Assembly (NCBI GenBank): GCA_964609095.1
Contig: CAZSQN010000001.1
Coordinates: 130,354 to 194,353, forward strand
Origin: an uncultured Gammaproteobacteria bacterium
GTDB taxonomy: Bacteria; Patescibacteriota; Patescibacteriia; CAZSQN01
DNA length: 64,000 nucleotides
Direction: 5' to 3'
The position numbers and the translations under genes were made by a program. Position 1 is the first letter of the stretch; each line of letters begins with the position of its first letter. Positions 4,581 to 47,519 of this stretch are shown here, one piece after another. The notes beneath the pieces were generated by a model, which was given only the letters and a program-made list of their open reading frames with translations, was not told the DNA's origin and ran no database searches.

Positions 4581-4728
4581 AAGTTGAAAAGGATTTGTAA
4601 AAAAAGAGTTTACAACAAAAATAAGCGACCGCTTCAAATTGTTGTAAAATGCGAGATTTTAATTTTTGGCCAGCCGTCGCTGCGTACAACCGCTTGCGAA
4701 AAGTGAAAATTTTTGGTATAATATAAAC

Positions 4729-5100: not shown

Positions 5101-5209
5101 ACATAATGCGAATTTCGCGAATGAACGCGAATGCCGCAAATATGCAAATACGGTATTCGCACATTCGTAGATTGGCATAAAATTCATATTATTCGCGTTA
5201 TATTTTTTT

Positions 5210-6314
5210 ATGAAAGATCTTATTGCGAAATTAGAAACACTTAAGAGCCGCGTACTCCAAGGCAGGAGGTTACTTTGACCTGGATAAATTAAAAACAGAA
5301 ATCAAGGCCTTGGAATGGCAAATGAACCAGAAGGATTTTTGGAACGATACGCGTGTGGCCAAAGAGGTCGCGACCAAGCACTCGGAGCTTTCCACCGAAG
5401 TTTCCAATTGGGAAGAGATACAAAAAAAGGTTGAAGACCTTTTGGAATTCTGCCGCGAAGCGGAAGAAACCGGCGAGACATCCATCCGTCCGGAAGCGGA
5501 AAAACAATACGAAGAATTATTAAAGAACTTTGAGCATTTGGAGTTCTTTCTTTTATTTTCGGAAAAATACGACGAGGGTAATTGTATCGTATCAATCCAT
5601 GCCGGCACCGGGGGCACCGAGGCCATGGATTGGGCCGGAATGCTCGCGAGAATGATTTTGCGTTTTAGCGAACGTCAGGGGTTCCGCGCGGAAATTTTAG
5701 ACGAGCATCGCGGCGCCGAAGCTGGGTACAAAAGCATAACTATAATGTTTGAAGGCCGATATGCTTATGGCTACCTTAAATCGGAACACGGCGTGCATCG
5801 GCTGGTGCGCATTTCTCCTTTTGACGCGGAAAAAATGCGCCATACTTCTTTCGCGCTTATAGAAGCGCTGCCGGTTTTGGCTGAAGTTGAAGAAATTAAA
5901 ATAGACCCCAAGGACTTGCGCGTAGACACGTTTCTTTCTTCCGGACATGGAGGACAATCAGTGCAGACAACTTACTCGGCTGTGCGCGTCGTGCATCTTC
6001 CAACAGGCATTACCGTTTCCGTGCAAAATGAGCGAAGTCAGACGCAAAACAAAGAAACAGCATTAAAGATATTGCAGGCCAAACTTCATGCTTTGGCCCA
6101 AGCTGAGCGGGCTGAAGAAAAGCAAAAAATCCGCGGTGAATATACGAGCGCCGAGTGGGGGAACCAGGCGCGGTCTTATGTTCTGCATCCGTATAAATTG
6201 GTCAAAGACCATCGGACAAAATTTGAAACCTCCGATGCCGAATCTGTTTTGGAAGGAAAGTTGGAGGAGCTGGTGGAGAGTTATTTGAGATGGAAGAAGG
6301 TAAAATCAAAATAA
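5210..6314 (+). CDS. prfB: Peptide chain release factor 2 with programmed +1 ribosomal frameshift
   Basis: Frame 0: MKDLIAKLETLKSRVLQGRRLL then TGA at 5276-5278; internal SD-like AGGAGG followed by CTT TGA C; +1 frame continues DLDKLKTEIKALEWQMNQ... into the 5310..6314 ORF; GGQ and SPF (RF2-specific) motifs present. Confidence 0.9.
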
Positions 6315-7164: not shown

Positions 7165-8325
7165 ATGCCTCTTCATCCCATAAATTTTTTGCAAAAACAT
7201 TTTTTCGCCCATCATCTCGCGCGCGAGCTTAAAGAGCTTTACGCCTCTACCGCTATTTTAACTTTTGCCGCCGCGGCCATTGCCATTTTTGAACCGATTT
7301 ATTTTATTACTATCGGCTTTACCCTCGCGCAGGTGCTTTTGTTTTACGGCACCGTGTACGTACTTTACTTCTTTTTATTGCCGCTCGGCGCAAAGTTTGC
7401 TCGTTCCCGCGGCTATGAGCACGGCATTCTTTATTCTTCTCCATTTTTGATTTTGTATTACCTTTCTCTTTTTGCCATACCGCAGAGCAAGATTTTTGTC
7501 GGAGTAGCCGTGCTGGCTTTTGCCATTCAGAAGATTCTTTATTGGCCCAGCTTTCACGCCGATATGGCCCGGTTTGGCAACACCGAGGAGCGCGGGCGCG
7601 AATTGGGAGGCATAGAATTGCTTTTGGCCTTTGTCGCTATTTTGGCGCCGGCTTTTGGCGGCTTGATTATTTCTTTGTTCGGATTCAAGGTCCTTTTTGC
7701 CATCGTTTCCGTTTTGATTTTGGCTTCTAATATCCCCTTGCTTTTGACGCCGGAAAATTTTACTCCGGTGCCGTTTTCTTATAAAGACGCGATGGCTGAT
7801 TTGTTTAAAAAAGAAAACGCGAGAAAGACAATTTCCAGATTTGGTTTTGGCGAACAGCTCCTGACCGCTATTGCTTGGCCAATTTTCATCTTTGCCATCG
7901 TGCCCCAGTTTAGGAAATTGGGCTTAATCGTGTCAGCCACGATTTTGTTCACTTCTCTGACGATGCTTATTGTGGGGCGTCTGACCGATACCCGTTATAG
8001 AAATTTGCTTATCCGTCTTGGAACAATTTTTACGTTTTTTTCCCATCCGGTGCGTTTGATGGTTTTAACCCCCTTTGGCGTGCTGGCGGCTGACACTTTT
8101 TACGGCATTTCCCGTTCCGTTTTGGGCATACCTTTTACCGCTTCCGTTTACGACGAGGCAAAGAACGGGAGTATTATGCGCTCGCTTATGCGTCACGAAA
8201 TGGCGCTGGCCGCCGGCAAGGCCCTGGCCTCTTTTGCCGGCATCGCCTTAATCTTTCTTTTCCCGCCGGGCTGGGCCGCGCTTTTTATCTTTGGCGCGTT
8301 TTTGACCCTGTTTTATTTTTTATAA
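7165..8325 (+). CDS. Polytopic membrane protein, probable MFS-type transporter
   Basis: 386 aa, about 12 predicted TM segments; no specific motif recognised. Confidence 0.4.
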   Translation: MPLHPINFLQKHFFAHHLARELKELYASTAILTFAAAAIAIFEPIYFITIGFTLAQVLLFYGTVYVLYFFLLPLGAKFARSRGYEHGILYSSPFLILYYLSLFAIPQSKIFVGVAVLAFAIQKILYWPSFHADMARFGNTEERGRELGGIELLLAFVAILAPAFGGLIISLFGFKVLFAIVSVLILASNIPLLLTPENFTPVPFSYKDAMADLFKKENARKTISRFGFGEQLLTAIAWPIFIFAIVPQFRKLGLIVSATILFTSLTMLIVGRLTDTRYRNLLIRLGTIFTFFSHPVRLMVLTPFGVLAADTFYGISRSVLGIPFTASVYDEAKNGSIMRSLMRHEMALAAGKALASFAGIALIFLFPPGWAALFIFGAFLTLFYFL

Positions 8326-9290: not shown

Positions 9291-9749
9291 ATGGCTGATA
9301 GCGGCTCTGAAAGATTTACTGTTTTCGTAAACTACGACGATCCCCGTTGGGGTAAGTTTGATAGTGGGCATTATGATTGTCACTTGCATCCAGATTTTGC
9401 CGTCGCGCATTTTCCAAGCAATGATCATGGTCTGGCTAAAGTGATCATGTGCTATGTAACTCCCGATCCCGCGAATCTGACAGATGCTAGAAAAGCTTTG
9501 AGTGAGATTAAACAACTTGGACTTCGTCGTCCTGACAGAGCAGAAGCCGAAATGTTTTTTGAACAGTATCCCGAGGAGCAAAACAAGTTTCCAATCATTG
9601 CTTTGTGTGGATCAATTGTTGGCGATGGCGTTGATAGGCGCGTCGCTTATATCAGCGCACACAATGACGAGTTTGCTGTAGGTGAAGTTAAGCTCGGACG
9701 CGACGGGTTTCTTAAGTATAGATTTCTCGCCGTCCGCAAGTCCGTCTAA
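9291..9749 (+). CDS. Hypothetical protein
   Basis: 152 aa; strong RBS (aaggag); no recognisable domain; followed by a clean terminator. Confidence 0.5.
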   Translation: MADSGSERFTVFVNYDDPRWGKFDSGHYDCHLHPDFAVAHFPSNDHGLAKVIMCYVTPDPANLTDARKALSEIKQLGLRRPDRAEAEMFFEQYPEEQNKFPIIALCGSIVGDGVDRRVAYISAHNDEFAVGEVKLGRDGFLKYRFLAVRKSV

Positions 9750-9801
9750 ATTCTGCAAAGCAAAACTTTGGTGGACAAGTAACGTTCTTTGAATTTTCGT
9801 G

Positions 9802-9830
9802 CCCTTCCGGCAAATGTCGGAAGGGTTTTA
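9802..9830 (+). terminator. Rho-independent terminator
   Basis: cccttccg-gcaaatgt-cggaaggg followed by TTTTA. Confidence 0.7.
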
Positions 9831-9896
9831 TATTTAACACTCATCTTTTTGTCTTGTTGTTAAACATATATGTAATACACCGCCGTCTATTTAAAG

Positions 9897-10076
9897 ATGG
9901 GAAAATGGTATGTCGGATGTATAGAAGTTCCGGGTGTGAATACACAGGGAAGGACGCTTAAAGAATTAAAGAATAATCTTAAGGAGGCCTTAGTTTTGGT
10001 TTTAAAAGTAGGCAGGTCTATTCTCGCGAAAGAACGGCCTCGGGGAAAAGTCGTTCGTGAGCGCATTAGACTCTAA
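9897..10076 (+). CDS. HicB/UPF0150-like antitoxin-fold small protein (orphan)
   Basis: 59 aa, below ORF-track cutoff; MGKWYVGCIEVPGVNTQGRTLKELKNNLKEALVLVL matches the HicB/UPF0150 pattern (Y..I.E.PG....G.T.eEa..n..EA..l.l); no HicA partner seen. Confidence 0.4.
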   Translation: MGKWYVGCIEVPGVNTQGRTLKELKNNLKEALVLVLKVGRSILAKERPRGKVVRERIRL

Positions 10077-10097
10077 AACTTTCTTTAAAACTCTTAA

Positions 10098-10133
10098 AGT
10101 CCCTATTACTTGCTATAGCAAGTAATAGGGACT
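10098..10133. repeat. 36-bp perfect palindrome AGTCCCTATTACTTGCTATAGCAAGTAATAGGGACT (copy 1)
   Basis: Perfect inverted repeat; second near-identical copy at 10818-10850; the two flank ORF 10186..10734. Confidence 0.9.
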
Positions 10134-10185
10134 ATGATTGTTTTAGCAAATTTGATGTTTAATCATTCATATATGATTATGATTT

Positions 10186-10734
10186 ATGACCAAGAAAGGC
10201 GAAATCGCATTTAAGATTTTGGCGGCGGTAGGTTTGGCAGGGGTGGTATGCGCGGCAGTTGTCGCGCCAAATGTTTTCCAATTTCTGCCAAATCCGTACA
10301 AAAGAAAATACCCTAAAAGATCTTTAGATAAAGCTCTTCAACGATTGAAAGATCGCGGACTGTTGAAATTCGCCGCCGGTTCTAATGGCTGGAGAGTTGA
10401 ACTTACGGAAAAAGGCCGTGAAGAACTTTTTGCGTATGAGACGTGTGAAAAAATGTTTAAGAAGCCCAAACGATGGGATGGCAAATGGCGGCTTCTCGTG
10501 TTTGATATTGAGGAGAAAAGAAAAAGCATCAGAGAAATGGTGCGACAAACACTTGTGCGGCTGGGATTTTATCGTTTGCAGGATAGCGTTTGGGCACATC
10601 CTTATGAATGCGAGGATGTGTTGGAACTTTTGCGCGCTAAATACCGCGTTCGCCATGAGGCGTTGTATTTACGCGCGGAGTATTTGGCTAAAGATCATTG
10701 GCTGCGTAAGCACTTTAATCTTCCTTTAGATTAA
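10186..10734 (+). CDS. PaaX-family-like transcriptional regulator (short form)
   Basis: 182 aa; N-terminal wHTH-like segment ending LTEKGREEL; C-terminal RWDGKWRLLVFDIEEKRKSIREMVRQTLVRLGFYRLQDSVWAHP resembles PaaX_C (WDGxW...LGFG.L..G.W) by recollection. Confidence 0.45.
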   Translation: MTKKGEIAFKILAAVGLAGVVCAAVVAPNVFQFLPNPYKRKYPKRSLDKALQRLKDRGLLKFAAGSNGWRVELTEKGREELFAYETCEKMFKKPKRWDGKWRLLVFDIEEKRKSIREMVRQTLVRLGFYRLQDSVWAHPYECEDVLELLRAKYRVRHEALYLRAEYLAKDHWLRKHFNLPLD

Positions 10735-10817
10735 ATTCGTTTATTTCGTGCAGCTTGCTGCGCGGAGGTTCATTGCGTTTGAATTAAAAATAATTTTGGA
10801 AGGAAAAGATTGTTTGT

Positions 10818-10850
10818 CCCCCATTACTTGCTATAGCAAGTAATAGGAGT
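10818..10850. repeat. Palindrome copy 2 (CCCATTACTTGCTATAGCAAGTAATAGG)
   Basis: Same 26-30-bp palindromic core as 10098-10133 with one mismatch. Confidence 0.85.
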
Positions 10851-10965
10851 ATTGGGAATGAAGTTAATTCTATAAGAAGCGCGGCAATTTTTGATGTTAT
10901 ATAGAAATGATCATGAGGTTAATTTTTTTGATTGTGTTTTAATTGCAAATGAGATAGATTATTTA

Positions 10966-13022: not shown

Positions 13023-13313
13023 TTGGGGCAAAAGCCGTCGCGCGTAACCAAGCATGCGATTAAACGGTATATGGGCCGCGTGCATAAGGGCCGGAGATTG
13101 AGGGAGCGCCACATTGTGGAGCGGATTCGGCAGATGCTAAAGCGCGGCTATCCAGTCGCGACAACGCGGAGAAATCAGGCGGTGCTGGAAAGCAAGCTTC
13201 ACGATGGGCGGGTATTTTACCTTATCTACGGCAATGATTCCGTTATCACTATAGTAACCGCCTCCATGTTTGAAGAAAGCCTGCGCCGGAGCGACTATCG
13301 CCTCATTTCATAA
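13023..13313 (+). CDS. Small basic hypothetical protein (DUF4258-like, possible toxin-fold)
   Basis: 96 aa; TKHAIKRYMGR motif loosely resembles DUF4258; weak. Confidence 0.3.
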   Translation: MGQKPSRVTKHAIKRYMGRVHKGRRLRERHIVERIRQMLKRGYPVATTRRNQAVLESKLHDGRVFYLIYGNDSVITIVTASMFEESLRRSDYRLIS

Positions 13314-39500: not shown

Positions 39501-42500
39501 GTTTCCAGAGAACAGGAGGACTTGGCTTATGTCGCCTCGGCTTTGGCCGGCGACGATATCTGCGTTTCGTTAAACGCTGATGCTTATGATTGGATTTGGA
39601 GCGTGCGCGAAGCGGACGGCTCACTGTTATCCGGAATCAATCCCGAAGCCAGAGTTGCCAATAATGACAATCTAGGCGGCGGAGCTGACGGGCTTTCTCC
39701 TGACGGACGGGTAGACAGCCGCCAGAGCGTCAGCACTCTTGCCGAAACCATTCCTGATCCGCCTGTTTACGTGCATGCGGCGGCGGCGGAAAGGACCGGC
39801 CGCGGCCGGCTGACAATTGATTTTACCGACCCGGAGATTGTGGAAAGCTGGCCTGCCTGCGACTCGGCCTGCGTCAACGCCGAGGTGGCGGCAAGATTCA
39901 ATACGGCCATGGACGCGGCAAGTTTTGCCGGAAACGCGTTTTTGCAACGTTGCGCCAACGAGTCGTGCCGGCTTTTTGATCAGGATATCTCGGTTTCGCC
40001 GTCTTATGACGAAGACGCTCGGATTTTAAGAATTGAACATCCTGCTTTGGAACCCTCGCGTTATTATCGCGTCAGGATTGGCAATGCGGCCAGATCGCGG
40101 TCCGGCGTGAATTTAACCCGTCTTAATTATGGAAATTATTATTCCTGGATTTTCCGCACCAAAGACGACAGCGCCGGCTGCGGCGTGGCGTCGGTGGATG
40201 TGTCTCCGGCAAGCATCCAGCTTTATTATCTTGGCGCCAGGCAAACGTTCAGGTCCGCGCCAATATCGCCTCCTGATGAATGTTCGCCCTCCGGCCAAAG
40301 ATTGACCCCGACCGATTATTCATGGGGCTGGGATGTCAGTAACAGAAATGTGGCGGAACTTTTGGATGACGGCGCTTTAAATGTTCTGCCGACTTCCGGC
40401 GTTAACGGCTGTTCTGATAAATGTCTGCGCGTCGGTTCGTCTGCCGGAATTCCGGTTTGCGGAAACGGCGGAGCTCCGGAGCGGGGCGAGGATTGCGATG
40501 ACGGAAATACTGTCTCGCGCGACGGATGCAGCGAGATTTGCTTAAGCGAGGGTTCTGATTTTGGCGGGAGCGACTGCGGCGACGGAAATGTCGGCGTGGG
40601 CGAGGATTGCGATGACGGAAACACGACTGCCGGAGACGGATGCGGTTCTTATTGTCTGAATGAGGGCTCAACCGCCGGCGGGTCGCTTTGCGGAAATAAC
40701 GATCTCGGGGACGGCGAGGATTGCGATGATGGAAATACTACCGGCGGCGACGGCTGCAGCGCTGAATGTTTGGACGAAGGTTCTATTAAGGGCCCCATGT
40801 CTGTTTGCGGAAATAGGGTGATAGAAGCCGGCGAGGATTGCGATGATGGAAACACTGCTGCACGCGACGGCTGTTCAAGCAGGTGCCTTAACGAGGGAAG
40901 ACCCGCCTGCGCCAACGGCAACAGAGCCAATTGCTGCGGTAATGGAATCACCGACAATTTTGAGGATTTTGATGACGGCAATACAACTTCCGGCGACGGC
41001 TATTCCAATCGCTGTCTGGCCGAGGGCTCGTCGATTTCTTACAACTCTATTTGCGGCAATGGTTCAAACGAAAACGACCTTGAGGCCGGCGAGGAGTGCG
41101 AGTTTACTTCGCGCGATAATCTGGTTGACCCGCTTCAGTACGCGGAAGCGCGAAATCAGGGGGAAACTTCCGTGAACGCTTCAACTGCCGGCCAAAGAGG
41201 ATCGGCCAATCTTCGCGTCCAATGCGTCTGCCAGAATGATTCTATGTGCGCTTCCGGCGGATTTCCGCCGGGTCTGGGCTGCGGCGCTGACAAATGCTGT
41301 TCCGCCCGTCCGAGAGTTGAGGAGGTTTCGCCTTTGGACGGTTCGCGAGACGCGTGCAGAAACGCGCTCCTTACAGCCAAGTTTTCCACTTTGATGGACG
41401 CAACTAGTTTTACTTCCGCCACGGTGCGGCTTGATTCCGCGGCTGTTGCGGGCGCGTGTCCGCAAGACAGCGCTCTGGTGGACGGGGTCTGGTGCGAAGG
41501 AGGCGCGGGCGAACTGCGTTTGGGCGCGCGCGCTGTTACTGAAGTCGTTGGCGAGATGGCGGAAGAAAAAACAATTTTGCAGATTTCCGGCGCCTCGGCT
41601 TTGCGCGCCAACACGGGTTATCGCGCGCGCATCATCGGCGATCCCAATATCGGCGATAACGCGACTCAAGGAGTAAAGAGCAAAACGGGCGTGGGCATGG
41701 ATGGCAATTACATCTGGACGTTTAGCACAGGCAGTGATATCTGTTCTTTGGACGAAGCGGAAATAGCTCCGTCTCCTGTTACATTTTTAACCACTGCTGA
41801 TCCGGATGGCACTAAGACGGTTGCCGTCCGCGCTTTAAGCAGAAGGAACGGCAATCTGGTGGAGATAGCCGGCATGCCAGAATATGATTGGGAATGGAGC
41901 TGGGCTGATTCAGACGCTATAGAGCCGGAATCAAAAATCATATCCCGCTCTGCCGGCGCGAGAAGAGAAGAACAAACAATTTCCAGCCGCCCAAGAAACG
42001 GCCAGATTACTTTGACCGCTACGGCGGAAATTATTACCGACACGTTTTTTACGCCCACTACCGCGAGGCGGTTAGTCGGGCCCGATGTTATTCCCGGTCG
42101 GCGCGTCAGTGATACCTCTTTGGTTATAGTAAATCTTTGCGAAAATCCCTGGCCGGAGCGGATAGGCGGTTTTTGGGAGCCGTTTACCGACGGGGATATG
42201 AATTTTTCATTATTTTATTGCCGCGACCGCGGCAATCAGGGAACTGCCGATGACCTGCCCGGGCTTATTGCCACCCGCGTTCCGGCTCCGCCTTCTCCAA
42301 ATATCATCCGTGAATATCTGTTTGCGGCCAATCCTTGTCCGGAAGATGGCACCGGTTGCGAAGCCGGGGACGCGCTGGGTATGAGGATAGCGGCTAACGG
42401 CGAGCATCTTTCCCCCCGCGACTGGTATTACCGGCAGGGATTCCGCGGTTCTCCAAGTTCCCGGGTTATTGACGGTTACGCCGGCTTGGAAGATGGAAGA

Positions 42501-46664: not shown

Positions 46665-46755
46665 TAGAATCTGGAATCTGGAATCTGAAATTTAGAATTT
46701 GAGGTTTAAATTAAAATTCTAAATTCTATATTCTAAATTCTATATTCTAAATTTT

Positions 46756-47442
46756 ATGTTCGAAAACACTCCGCCTAATTTACCAACCGCTAAAGAGCCG
46801 GAAGATATTTTTGGCGAAAAAAAATCGGCTCCAGCCGGAGCCGGAGCGCCGTCCGCGCCGGGAGCTCCATCTGCGCCGCCGCGTCCCGCTCCTCCGTCTC
46901 GTCCGCTAGTTCCTCCGCCTTTGACGCCGCCAGCCGCCCCCAAGCCGCCTGCGCCAGGAGCAGCGCCGTCTCGGGCAACTCCGGCAGCGGTTGAAAAGCC
47001 GTCAAAATCATGGAAAAGGGTGGTTTTATTTGTCGTTGTTTTGGCAGTTTTAGGCGGCGGAGGTTATTTTGCTCTGACTTATTTTGGTTTGTTGGGTCCT
47101 AAGAAGCCGGTTCCTTCGCCGGAAAAAGAAGAAACATTGCCGCCGCCTCCGCCCCCAGCGCCGGTTCAAGAAGAAACTCCGGCTCCGCCGCCTCCGCCCC
47201 CAGCGCCGGTTGATTCTGACGGAGACGGGTTGACCGATGAAAATGAGCAAAGCTTGGGCACTGACCCGCTTAAAGCCGATACTGACGCTGACGGACTTTT
47301 GGACAATGAAGAAGTGCGCATTTATAAAACAGACCCGTTAAATTCTGACACTGACGGCGATGGCTATAAAGACGGCGATGAGGTCAGAAATAGTTATAAT
47401 CCGAACGGTCCGGGCCGGCTTTTCCAAGTGCCGACACAGTAA
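46756..47442 (+). CDS. Proline-rich membrane-anchored protein with TSP3-like Ca-binding repeats
   Basis: 228 aa; Pro/Ala-rich N-term, one TM, PPPPPAP linkers, DSDGDGLTDENE...DTDADGLLDNEE...DTDGDGYKDGDE...SYNPNGPGRL C-terminus. Confidence 0.6.
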   Translation: MFENTPPNLPTAKEPEDIFGEKKSAPAGAGAPSAPGAPSAPPRPAPPSRPLVPPPLTPPAAPKPPAPGAAPSRATPAAVEKPSKSWKRVVLFVVVLAVLGGGGYFALTYFGLLGPKKPVPSPEKEETLPPPPPPAPVQEETPAPPPPPPAPVDSDGDGLTDENEQSLGTDPLKADTDADGLLDNEEVRIYKTDPLNSDTDGDGYKDGDEVRNSYNPNGPGRLFQVPTQ

Positions 47443-47519
47443 ATTGGAATAAAGAATTAAGAATTATGAATAATGGAAGTAGAATTCTTAATTCTTGATT
47501 CATAATTCATGATTCAAAA

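Follow-up and report, generated by a model that had tools for sequence, protein, structure and literature searches.

Why does a short gene resembling paaX, in the genome of an uncultivated groundwater bacterium, lie between two copies of one long palindrome? The sequence-only reading of this locus had offered two answers, that the palindromes are operators for the winged-helix protein they flank or that they are a MITE-like repeat, and had placed them in an accessory islet together with an orphan HicB-like ORF. We examined the locus within the window (the whole stretch of 64,000 nucleotides, or 64 kb, that was analysed) and compared it with other loci that carry a member of the same protein family. 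The features discussed below are the following:

9291 to 9749, plus strand: 152-aa ORF, a neighbour in the variable ksgA-map slot but outside the module, with a canonical T-tract terminator behind it (9801 to 9826)
9870 to 10076, plus strand: decayed orphan hicB, with ATG at 9870, TAA at 9873 and a residual ORF at 9897 to 10076
10098 to 10133, no strand: U, the upstream palindrome, a perfect 36-bp dyad with halves AGTCCCTATTACTTGCTA and TAGCAAGTAATAGGGACT, and 52 nt between its end and the ATG
10110 to 10138, plus strand: promoter-like element TTGCTA-17-TATGAT, a consensus match only
10186 to 10734, plus strand: gene of a short PaaX-like protein (182 aa; PF20803, E 5e-20), supported by AF2 and Foldseek
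10819 to 10847, no strand: D, the downstream palindrome, a copy of U at 28 of 29 positions that begins 85 nt past the stop codon

The palindromes are two copies of one sequence

U has the sequence AGTCCCTATTACTTGCTATAGCAAGTAATAGGGACT, with 18-nt arms and a spacer of 0 (10098-10133). It is the longest perfect palindrome of the window, the chance expectation for a perfect palindrome like it in 64 kb being about 1e-6, and it agrees in full with its earlier description as a perfect 36-bp dyad. The downstream copy, previously placed at 10818-10850 with one mismatch, is real but less complete than claimed: D (10819-10847) matches U (10101-10129) at 28 of 29 positions, and as a dyad it has 14-nt arms only, with one mismatch (10820-10847) and degenerate outer arms. 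At the orthologous locus (L032), the perfect 36-bp copy is the downstream one. The exact core common to U and D is the 22-mer ATTACTTGCTATAGCAAGTAAT (10105-10126 and 10823-10844), which has two matches in the window even when up to 3 mismatches are allowed, compared to none in 100 shuffles, and we therefore dismiss a chance origin of the pair. The central motif GCTATAGC likewise occurs in the window only twice. An assembly artefact was ruled out, as Logan assemblies made independently from several runs contain identical sequences; their contigs merely break within perfect palindromes. A further hairpin, centred on CGACCG at 42224, was dismissed, as it lies within a 3089-aa ORF.

The enclosed gene belongs to a large family of short PaaX-like proteins

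In PaaX, the Cas2-like PaaX_M domain is a dimerisation module and PaaX_C is the ligand-binding domain; the protein itself is the repressor of phenylacetate catabolism in E. coli and Pseudomonas (PDB 8a39, 3l09). From its N-terminus, the window protein has a hydrophobic helix, a second helix with a wing, and the Cas2-like PaaX_M domain. It appears to share with PaaX a winged helix followed by a Cas2-like middle domain. Residues 95-169, the M domain, match PF20803 strongly (71.8 bits, cut-off 24), and the relative at L016 gives the same result. The AF2 model (pLDDT 81.5) places the helix at residues 45-56 and the wing at residues 60-73; residues 1-44 are of low confidence, and within this part the N-terminal 25 residues resemble a membrane helix. 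In Foldseek, E. coli PaaX (8a39) ranks first, ahead of Cas2 and VapD, and PaaX is the best match by HMM as well. Alignments to TIGR02277 and to E. coli PaaX begin at residue 45, that is, at the recognition helix plus wing, and Pfam PaaX_N has no match in the protein.

The label PaaX-like is apt for the wing and the M domain, and not for the protein as a whole. PaaX_C (the CoA-ligand domain) is absent, as the protein stops about 15 residues past the M domain (182 aa compared to 316 aa in PaaX). The match to TIGR02277 is partial and far below the family cut-off (47.2 against 264.55 bits), and there are no paa catabolic genes nearby, the neighbours being ksgA, map, ruvX, recO and aspS. In addition, the hydrophobic N-terminus sets the window protein apart from PaaX, as does its retained acidic motif of the Cas2 type, FDIxE, which aligns with LLLSEGL in E. 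coli PaaX.

With Cas2 and VapD, the window protein shares a ferredoxin-like beta-alpha-beta-beta-alpha-beta fold, the conserved beta1 Asp and a Q-SV-W/F motif. The family alignment has invariant columns at D107, E110, R116, R120 and QDSVW, and likewise at D133. The cas2 model TIGR01573 scores 27.9 bits against a cut-off of 24.5, over residues 101-143 only, and because this score exceeds the cut-off, PGAP labels the family Cas2. This name is a mislabel. Cas2 is a stand-alone protein of about 90 aa, whereas here a winged helix is fused to the domain and the alignment spans only about 45 residues; the 20 kb surrounding the gene contain no cas genes, cas1 included, and the window has no CRISPR-like array. 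As a candidate defence system the locus was rejected, PADLOC yielding weak Cas2-domain matches only. Literature searches found no link between PaaX and a Cas2-like domain, and nothing relevant among the 15 best-ranked of 363 papers containing GCTATAGC.

Short PaaX-like proteins without PaaX_C form a large family in Patescibacteria: a profile search retrieved 3430 clusters at 50% identity with E<=1e-10, of which 802 reached E<=1e-30, members are 170-210 aa long, and all retrieved members with source names come from Patescibacteria/CPR-type records. The gene is strongly constrained by purifying selection. Specifically, the window gene and its ortholog at L032, which is syntenic between ksgA and map, are 91% identical at the amino acid level with a dN/dS of 0.04 (0.038), and their dS (1.31) is like that of neighbouring genes (0.66-2.7). 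Together with the kept synteny, these values indicate long vertical residence and constraint at the level of the host; recent horizontal gain was ruled out on the basis of the neighbour-like dS and the retained synteny.

Two palindrome copies bracket the gene at every family locus examined

We compared 11 loci: the window, its ortholog L032, the paralog in the same genome (L018), L020, L022, L023, L024, L025, L026, L028, and L016, whose protein is only 29% identical. At all 11, the gene lies tightly between two copies of a palindrome of 32-45 bp, which is specific to the locus and usually has GCTATAGC at its centre, and the bracketing repeats and palindromes have Z-scores of 5 to 28 against shuffles. 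A copy follows the stop codon at every locus, beginning between -9 and +30 nt relative to it at 8 of the 11, and often lies between convergent genes (L016, L024 and L028). The housekeeping neighbours differ at every family locus; those other than the window adjoin aminoacyl-tRNA synthetase genes, recG, rbfA and rpoB. The palindromes go with the gene, since at L034, where the ksgA...map synteny is retained and a different gene occupies the slot, such palindromes are absent. Both palindromes and the enclosed gene are one conserved unit, and the tight bracketing of a family gene by two locus-specific palindrome copies is new. Its presence at all 11 loci points to a self-contained, previously undescribed unit of a protein with its putative binding sites, and not to a junk repeat.

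The sites themselves are under selection. The window and L032 share a 32-nt stretch of U without a single difference, although synonymous sites differ at a pS of 0.62 and the remaining spacer is unalignable. Moreover, the arms covary strongly across the loci, with 82.9% of cells paired compared to 58.4% in shuffles. Differences between U and D of one locus are compensated on the opposite arm, in three pairs at L026 and two at L016, and four such pairs separate U of the window from D of L032.

Copies of the palindrome also occur without the gene. The exact 20-mer core was found in three other genomes, at most once per contig. Solo copies (L006, L007 and L017) lie in other phyla, between convergent genes, and have the same core with longer perfect arms; at L007, past recG, a 21-bp stem is followed by TTTTTTGTTTTT. 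In other Patescibacteria, the 20-mer is also found between genes at unrelated sites. Four further occurrences (L009, L012, L013 and L014) were set aside as probably due to chance, as they lack a palindromic extension and are in low-GC, apparently non-CPR sequence. A phage or viral origin was excluded, since neither the 20-mer core nor the protein family was found in IMG/VR and blastn against INPHARED returned no match.

The palindromes as proposed cognate sites of an autorepressor

We propose, with a probability of roughly one in two, that each palindrome is a dyad recognised as a cognate site by a PaaX-type dimer, with autorepression mediated by the upstream one. A dimer of this type would bind the long dyad, with both winged helices reading the locus-specific outer arms and the conserved centre GCTATAGC lying beneath the Cas2-like dimer or providing a flexible TATA step. 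Bound at U, which overlaps the promoter-like element, the dimer would repress its own gene, in the way that PaaX acts at Px in E. coli. D would then be a second site for the protein and might act in looping or as a roadblock or insulator.

Several observations argue for this reading, beginning with the bracketing at 11 of 11 loci, the lack of such palindromes at L034, the selection on the sites, the DNA-level symmetry seen in the folding comparison described below, and the resemblance to PaaX by HMM and fold. In the window, the -35 box falls within the core of the palindrome, which is conserved, and the -10 box begins at 10133, the last base of U, and runs on just 3' of it; the ortholog has TTGCTA-17-TAAAAT in the same register, and most family loci have a -10-like box within U or just 3' of it. 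This position and the register shared between the window and L032 count in favour of an operator. Proteins with similar helix and wing sequences (L018, L020 and L022) have palindromes with similar outer arms (CTTCAA / CTCTAA), which again favours this reading. Furthermore, E. coli PaaX, which represses its own promoter, recognises a dyad of 39 bp, TGATTC-N27-GAATCA (PMC9493321). The dyads described here, which also lie at the promoter-like region of their own gene, are of the same length class, a further point for the operator reading; they differ in being palindromic throughout, with a conserved centre, and in having a second copy that is always behind the stop codon.

The operator interpretation of the sequence-only reading thus gains from the conserved bracketing and from the overlap of U with a promoter-like element in the window and L032, but in its simple form it falls short. 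Compensated changes in the arms are not predicted by a plain operator model, as they maintain symmetry at freely varying positions, and would be expected under hairpin or cruciform formation or under symmetrisation by template switching. The copy past the stop codon, often between convergent genes, is not at a promoter, and solo copies in other phyla, again between convergent genes, are left unexplained. Also counting against an operator are the identical 20-mer core next to the 29%-identical protein of L016, when paralogs that are 58-62% identical have other cores, and the N-terminus that resembles a membrane helix.

If each member has its own cognate palindrome pair, a wrong annotation could be corrected in Patescibacteria/CPR, a group with hardly any well-understood regulators, where pipelines mislabel members of this family as Cas2. 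The family would also constitute a natural set of proteins and sites for studying how PaaX-type binding specificity evolves, and its loci would be directly testable without culturing the organism. The maintained perfect palindromy and the solo copies raise the possibility that the sites work in the form of extruded DNA structures, something that would be uncommon among bacterial regulators.

Alternative explanations

One alternative is that the unit is a selfish or mobile cassette, with the palindromes as hairpin-forming ends that are recognised or cut by the winged-helix plus Cas2-like protein, and with the solo palindromes as footprints left when recombination between the direct copies deleted the gene. 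We consider this unlikely. Direct repeats that closely bracket a coding sequence, different housekeeping neighbours at each locus, a mosaic ksgA-map slot in which L034 lacks both gene and palindromes, and the existence of solo copies would all fit such a cassette, as would the invariant D107, E110 and D133, which are reminiscent of Cas2 active sites and include a retained Cas2 beta1 Asp. The maintained pairing of the arms would suit a structure-specific enzyme. The single gene between palindromes that are structured and imperfectly conserved, and that remain symmetrical as their sequence changes, also resembles integron attC sites, Xer pdif modules and the subterminal hairpins of IS200-IS605. 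Here, however, the centre is conserved instead of the R''/R' ends, extrahelical bases and the 11-6-11 Xer layout are absent, the two copies within one locus resemble each other, and the called genes of the loci encode no integrase, Xer or Y1 transposase domain. The vertical signal between the window and L032 (dS, synteny and dN/dS) speaks against mobility, as does the lack of near-identical multiple copies, the two paralogs of the source genome being 58% identical with different palindromes. We observed neither a target-site duplication nor an empty site, no transposase, integrase or Cas1 was found within 20 kb around the gene, and family and core are missing from IMG/VR.

The palindromes might instead act in RNA, as a structure in the 5' leader and a 3' terminator, stabiliser or processing site that insulates the gene, with the protein possibly using its RRM-like Cas2 fold to bind its own transcript. 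This explanation also seems improbable to us. Predicted hairpin energies range from about -4 to -31 kcal/mol, D is close behind the stop codon, the stem of L007 is followed by TTTTTTGTTTTT, and some copies (L018 and L024) pair better on the sense strand via G.U. U was flagged as terminator-like, with ATGATTGTTTT 3' of it and a weak T-rich tail, so the earlier statement that the palindromes have no T-tracts applies to D, which has none behind it, and not to U. Nevertheless, a T-tract was found behind none of the 10 inspected downstream copies of other loci, whereas the source genome of the window has canonical terminators such as the one at 9801-9826. We accordingly excluded a canonical intrinsic terminator, as the sequence-only reading had anticipated. 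Across 24 copies there was no consistent advantage for the sense strand, several folded better as antisense, and perfect copies lacked G.U pairs altogether, which points to symmetry at the DNA level. No Rfam family matched at gathering thresholds, with only far sub-threshold hairpin-like matches at E<=1.

A bolder variant, which we regard as rather improbable, is a structure-specific module in which a membrane-tethered winged-helix plus Cas2-like protein, its Cas2 acidic site preserved, would act on its own palindromic direct repeats when these are extruded as hairpins or cruciforms, recognising them and perhaps also nicking or resolving them. Maintained perfect palindromy and solo copies would then be products of the protein's activity, and the repeats are of the size of CRISPR repeats. 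Such a unit would be a new hairpin-ended selfish cassette or addiction element, or else a free-living relative of the partnership between Cas2 and repeats.

Finally, a generic REP/BIME-like or MITE-like repeat that flanks the gene by happenstance is very improbable, since its palindromic form and the 20-mer cores at unrelated intergenic sites are outweighed by the low copy number (two in 64 kb, flanking a single gene), the bracketing of all 11 family loci examined, no other contig with more than one exact core (at most one per contig in three genomes), and the absence of terminal inverted repeats with a target duplication and of a REP-type GTAG head; we thus reject this half of the earlier proposal.

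The ksgA-map slot and a decayed hicB

The HicB-like ORF upstream of U is a decayed orphan and not part of a working toxin-antitoxin pair. The residual ORF itself scores below the UPF0150 threshold (PF21748, 27.3 bits), with 19.1 bits, or 20.7 when extended upstream, but PF21748 is present in its homologs (49-83% identity), which bear the name HicB antitoxin. Codon 2 is TAA where homologs read CAA, and one residue is deleted. In the type II HicAB system of the homolog at L035, hicA adjoins and overlaps the hicB stop codon, whereas we found no hicA ORF in 10076-10186 or upstream; the missing partner had been noted correctly, and hicA has been lost from a remnant with a nonsense mutation. At the orthologous locus L032, the hicB remnant is missing as well.

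Taken as a whole, the slot is a mosaic that varies from relative to relative, to which the term accessory islet is suited, but the term does not extend to the PaaX-like gene, which is syntenic and vertically inherited (91% aa identity, dS 1.3, dN/dS 0.04). The 152-aa ORF at 9291-9749 is indeed domain-less, with no match in Pfam, NCBIfam or PADLOC. It is 45% identical to a 151-aa ORF at the equivalent position of L034, and at L032 an unrelated 253-aa ORF takes its place.

Palindromes bracket a short PaaX-like gene in all eleven family loci compared

The sequence-only reading had described a perfect 36-bp palindrome and a second, slightly altered copy on either side of a PaaX-like gene, and this palindrome pair is real. 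The features concerned are:

9801-9826: canonical terminator (terminator scan of the window)
10098-10133: palindrome U, AGTCCCTATTACTTGCTA|TAGCAAGTAATAGGGACT, a perfect dyad with 18-nt arms
10186-10734, + strand: PaaX-like gene, 182 aa, matching PF20803 (PaaX_M, E 5e-20)
10819-10847: palindrome D, identical to 10101-10129 at 28/29 positions

U is the longest perfect palindrome of the whole window. Taken as a dyad in its own right, D has 14-nt arms with one mismatch, its outer arms having decayed. The exact 22-mer common to U and D has no other site in the window with three mismatches allowed (0 in 100 shuffles), and the centre GCTATAGC occurs twice in the 64 kb. The pair had also been said to have no T-tracts; the terminator scan bears this out for D, but flagged U, which has the T-rich tail ATGATTGTTTT.

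We compared 11 loci that each encode a member of this family of short PaaX-type proteins: the window and ten fetched loci, comprising L032 (the ortholog, from a related genome), the paralog L018 (58% identical, encoded on a different contig of this MAG), L020, L022, L023, L024, L025, L026 and L028 (42-59% identity), and L016, whose 29% identical member was located via the palindrome itself. For each, the 250 nt 5' of the start were aligned locally with the 250 nt 3' of the stop, and the best alignment was scored against shuffles. In all 11 loci this alignment was a repeat of 29-100 nt (Z-scores 5 to 28) that is itself palindromic, perfectly or imperfectly. The upstream palindrome ends 0-110 nt from the ATG, and the downstream one starts about 30 nt or less from the stop in 8 of the 11 loci; in L023 it overlaps the stop codon. 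No T-tract follows any downstream copy inspected. The arms differ from locus to locus; nine loci are centred on GCTATAGC or a close variant of it, and L024 and L026 on CGACCG/CGGTCG. Frequently only one copy within a locus is perfect: the upstream one in the window, the downstream one in L032 (36-mer TCCCCCTGTTACTTGCTATAGCAAGTAACAGGGGGA). The bracketing of the gene by palindromes is a family-wide property and our main new result; we found no description of this module in the literature searched.

The downstream copies of L018, L020 and L022 are imperfect, yet agree in an asymmetric right arm, GCTATAGCACG(A/C)G..TTnGA(A/G)G. Because different loci have this arm in common, such copies are not simply random decay of a perfect copy, and there may be a second class of site that is asymmetric. 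Separately, contigs of independent Logan assemblies begin or end exactly inside perfect palindromes (L002-L005 and L021 at position 1, L027 at its end). Such breaks arise for technical reasons when de Bruijn assembly meets a perfect dyad, and palindrome-gene modules will therefore often lie at contig ends.

Palindromic symmetry is maintained

Among 25 centred copies, 82.9% of cells were paired compared with 58.4% after shuffling (0/500 shuffles reached the observed value), and 121 cells were changed on both sides where 48 were expected, counts that lean slightly toward symmetry, the copies having been centred by maximising their own palindromic pairs. The chosen centre falls on the conserved GCTATAGC core, and the covariation score was 0.65 against 0.08-0.19 for slid registers. 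The two copies within one locus show compensated differences, L026 at three pairs and L016 at two, and window U differs from L032 D by four. We observed no consistent bias between sense and antisense folding and no G.U pairs in the perfect copies; therefore, the symmetry, which is itself maintained, operates at the level of DNA, or else on the two strands alike.

Beyond the family loci, the exact 20-mer TTACTTGCTATAGCAAGTAA was found once in each of three further genomes, all from different CPR lineages (a Parcubacteria-group, a Sungiibacteriota and a Wildermuthbacteria MAG) and in several metagenome contigs. L015 and L016 represent one such occurrence, in which the core adjoins a PaaX_M gene. 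The DNA retrieved for L006, L007, L008, L010, L011 and L017 (short stretches for L006, L010 and L011) contains no family gene. These solo copies have differing, perfectly complementary extensions with arms of up to 24 nt, and several lie between convergent genes, the L007 copy being followed by a T-tract. Four marine or low-GC hits to the 20-mer, which show no palindromic extension, were set aside as chance-like. Neither the core nor the family was present in IMG/VR, and phage records gave no match. The window has a solo intergenic palindrome of its own at 4609-4649 (TTTACAACAAaaatAAGCGACCGCTTcaaaTTGTTGTAAA), centred on CGACCG as at the PaaX_M genes of L024 and L026, with a T-tract terminator on one side and, on the other, a promoter-like box (TGGTATAAT) upstream of a MamF_MmsF-like gene. 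AT-rich repeats at 47454-47515 and 46707-46765 (an imperfect palindrome with 35-nt arms, 77% complementary, and 7- and 14-nt short tandem repeats) appear unrelated to the palindrome-gene finding.

The protein falls outside PaaX proper and Cas2

The label PaaX-like was borne out by the PaaX_M match only in part: neither PaaX_N nor PaaX_C was matched in Pfam, and TIGR02277 (NCBIfam PaaX) aligns to residues 45-154 only, at 47 bits against a cut-off of 264. A short match to NCBIfam cas2 barely exceeds its cut-off (27.9 vs 24.5), hence the PGAP name 'CRISPR-associated endonuclease Cas2'. In the AlphaFold model (pLDDT 81.5), residues 5-26 form a hydrophobic helix (low confidence), residues 45-56 a further helix accompanied by a beta wing (60-73), and residues 101-164 a beta-alpha-beta-beta-alpha-beta domain. 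The structure that matches the model best is E. coli PaaX (8a39); Rv0674 ranks next, then many Cas2 structures and VapD. Residues invariant in 38 homologs include W97, W101, F106, D107, E110, R116, R120, Q132-W136, P139 and C142, so the Cas2-type 'FDIxE' and 'QDSVW' motifs are retained, whereas the E. coli PaaX segment aligned to the 'FDIxE' region reads LLLSEGL. Clustered at 50% identity, the family, whose members are 170-210 aa long, comprises 802 clusters with E<=1e-30 and 3430 with E<=1e-10, and all taxon-named hits are from Patescibacteria-type (CPR) records. Residues 1-28 (10186-10270) hold a conserved hydrophobic run of about 22 residues (ILxxxGxAGxxxVAxVAPN), with basic residues commoner after than before it, which looks like a membrane anchor; a DNA-binding protein tethered to the membrane would be unusual. 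The module is closest to PaaX with its operator, while the protein itself belongs to neither PaaX proper nor Cas2.

A constrained module in a mosaic slot

In this groundwater-derived Patescibacteria (CPR) genome, the studied region lies in a one-strand housekeeping run (sua5, an MFS-like gene, ksgA, the region, map, ruvX, recO, aspS). In L032 (Map 87% identical) the order ksgA-[ORF]-palindrome-gene-palindrome-map is kept. In the relative L034 (Map 73% identical) the flanks are kept, and the slot (5170-5880) holds neither a PaaX_M gene nor a GCTATAGC palindrome; it contains a small ORF and a 188-aa gene, unmatched in Pfam and PADLOC and nucleotidyltransferase-like by eye, a possible toxin-antitoxin-type pair. 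A 32-nt run of U is identical in the window and L032, while the spacer around it is no longer alignable. Sequence comparison indicates that the palindromes accompany the gene and are under selection.

The PaaX-like proteins of the window and L032 are 91% identical, with a dS of 1.31 (neighbours 0.66 to >2) and a dN/dS of 0.038, the lowest of the five genes with a computable ratio (RuvX was saturated at synonymous sites). A dS like that of its neighbours and a low dN/dS argue, together with the identity, for long vertical residence under strong constraint and against recent import. For the 152-aa ORF, which indeed has no domain match, L034 has a counterpart that is 45% identical, and L032 has an unrelated 253-aa ORF in its place. 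The HicB-like ORF had been reported as lacking a HicA partner, and this is correct. Its homologs (49-83% identity, PF21748) are genuine HicB-family members and start MQYTA... (ATG-CAA-TAC), where window 9870-9878 reads ATG-TAA-TAC; given this CAA-to-TAA nonsense change at codon 2, accompanied by a one-residue deletion, the 59-aa ORF that starts at 9897 is what is left of a truncated gene. The homolog locus L035 has hicA at 2722-2913, overlapping the hicB stop; since hicA is absent from the window and the ORF itself from L032, the HicB-like ORF is a decaying orphan. These swaps make the ksgA-map slot a mosaic hot spot, within which conservation and constraint fall on the PaaX-like module, so that 'accessory islet' suits the slot but not the module.

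Conservation is also uneven along the syntenic block: the MFS-like membrane protein (7165-8325) and the L032 ortholog share 95% identity (dS 0.66), compared with only 58-72% for the adjacent KsgA, RuvX and RecO. A 96-aa ORF between recO and aspS (13023-13313), also called in the NCBI record, has no Pfam match.

The palindromes as predicted cognate sites

The promoter scan placed TTGCTA-17-TATGAT in the window, with the -35 within the conserved core and the -10 running from the dyad's last base to just 3' of it; L032 has TTGCTA-17-TAAAAT in the same register. By eye, L026 (TGTTATAAT), L016 (TGGTATAGT) and L025 (TATAAT) have a -10-like box within the upstream copy or immediately 3' of it, and L023 has a -35 in the right arm of that copy. 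E. coli PaaX is a repressor of its own promoter that recognises TGATTC-N27-GAATCA, a site of 39 bp in all (PMC9493321); its length class and logic match those seen here. In the best-supported reading, the palindromes are predicted cognate dyad sites of the protein that they bracket. On this view the variable helix/wing would recognise the variable outer arms, in keeping with L018, L020 and L022, where proteins with a similar helix/wing region go with outer arms that are alike (CTTCAA/CTCTAA type), and the invariant Cas2-like dimer would lie opposite the conserved centre. We infer binding, autorepression and any role of the downstream copy.

The earlier operator proposal, and that interpretation as a whole, are thus partly supported: bracketing in 11/11 loci and the PaaX-like dyad length favour it, but four facts lie outside a plain operator model. 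Differences between the two copies of one locus are compensated; every locus has a copy 3' of the stop codon, even where genes converge; the same core stands beside proteins only 29% identical, and other cores beside closer paralogs; and solo copies are long and perfect. On these grounds, the DNA may instead act as an extruded hairpin or cruciform, or arm-to-arm template switching may symmetrise the sites. The same facts leave room for a selfish cassette, against which stand the absence of multi-copy identity, vertical inheritance and strong constraint.
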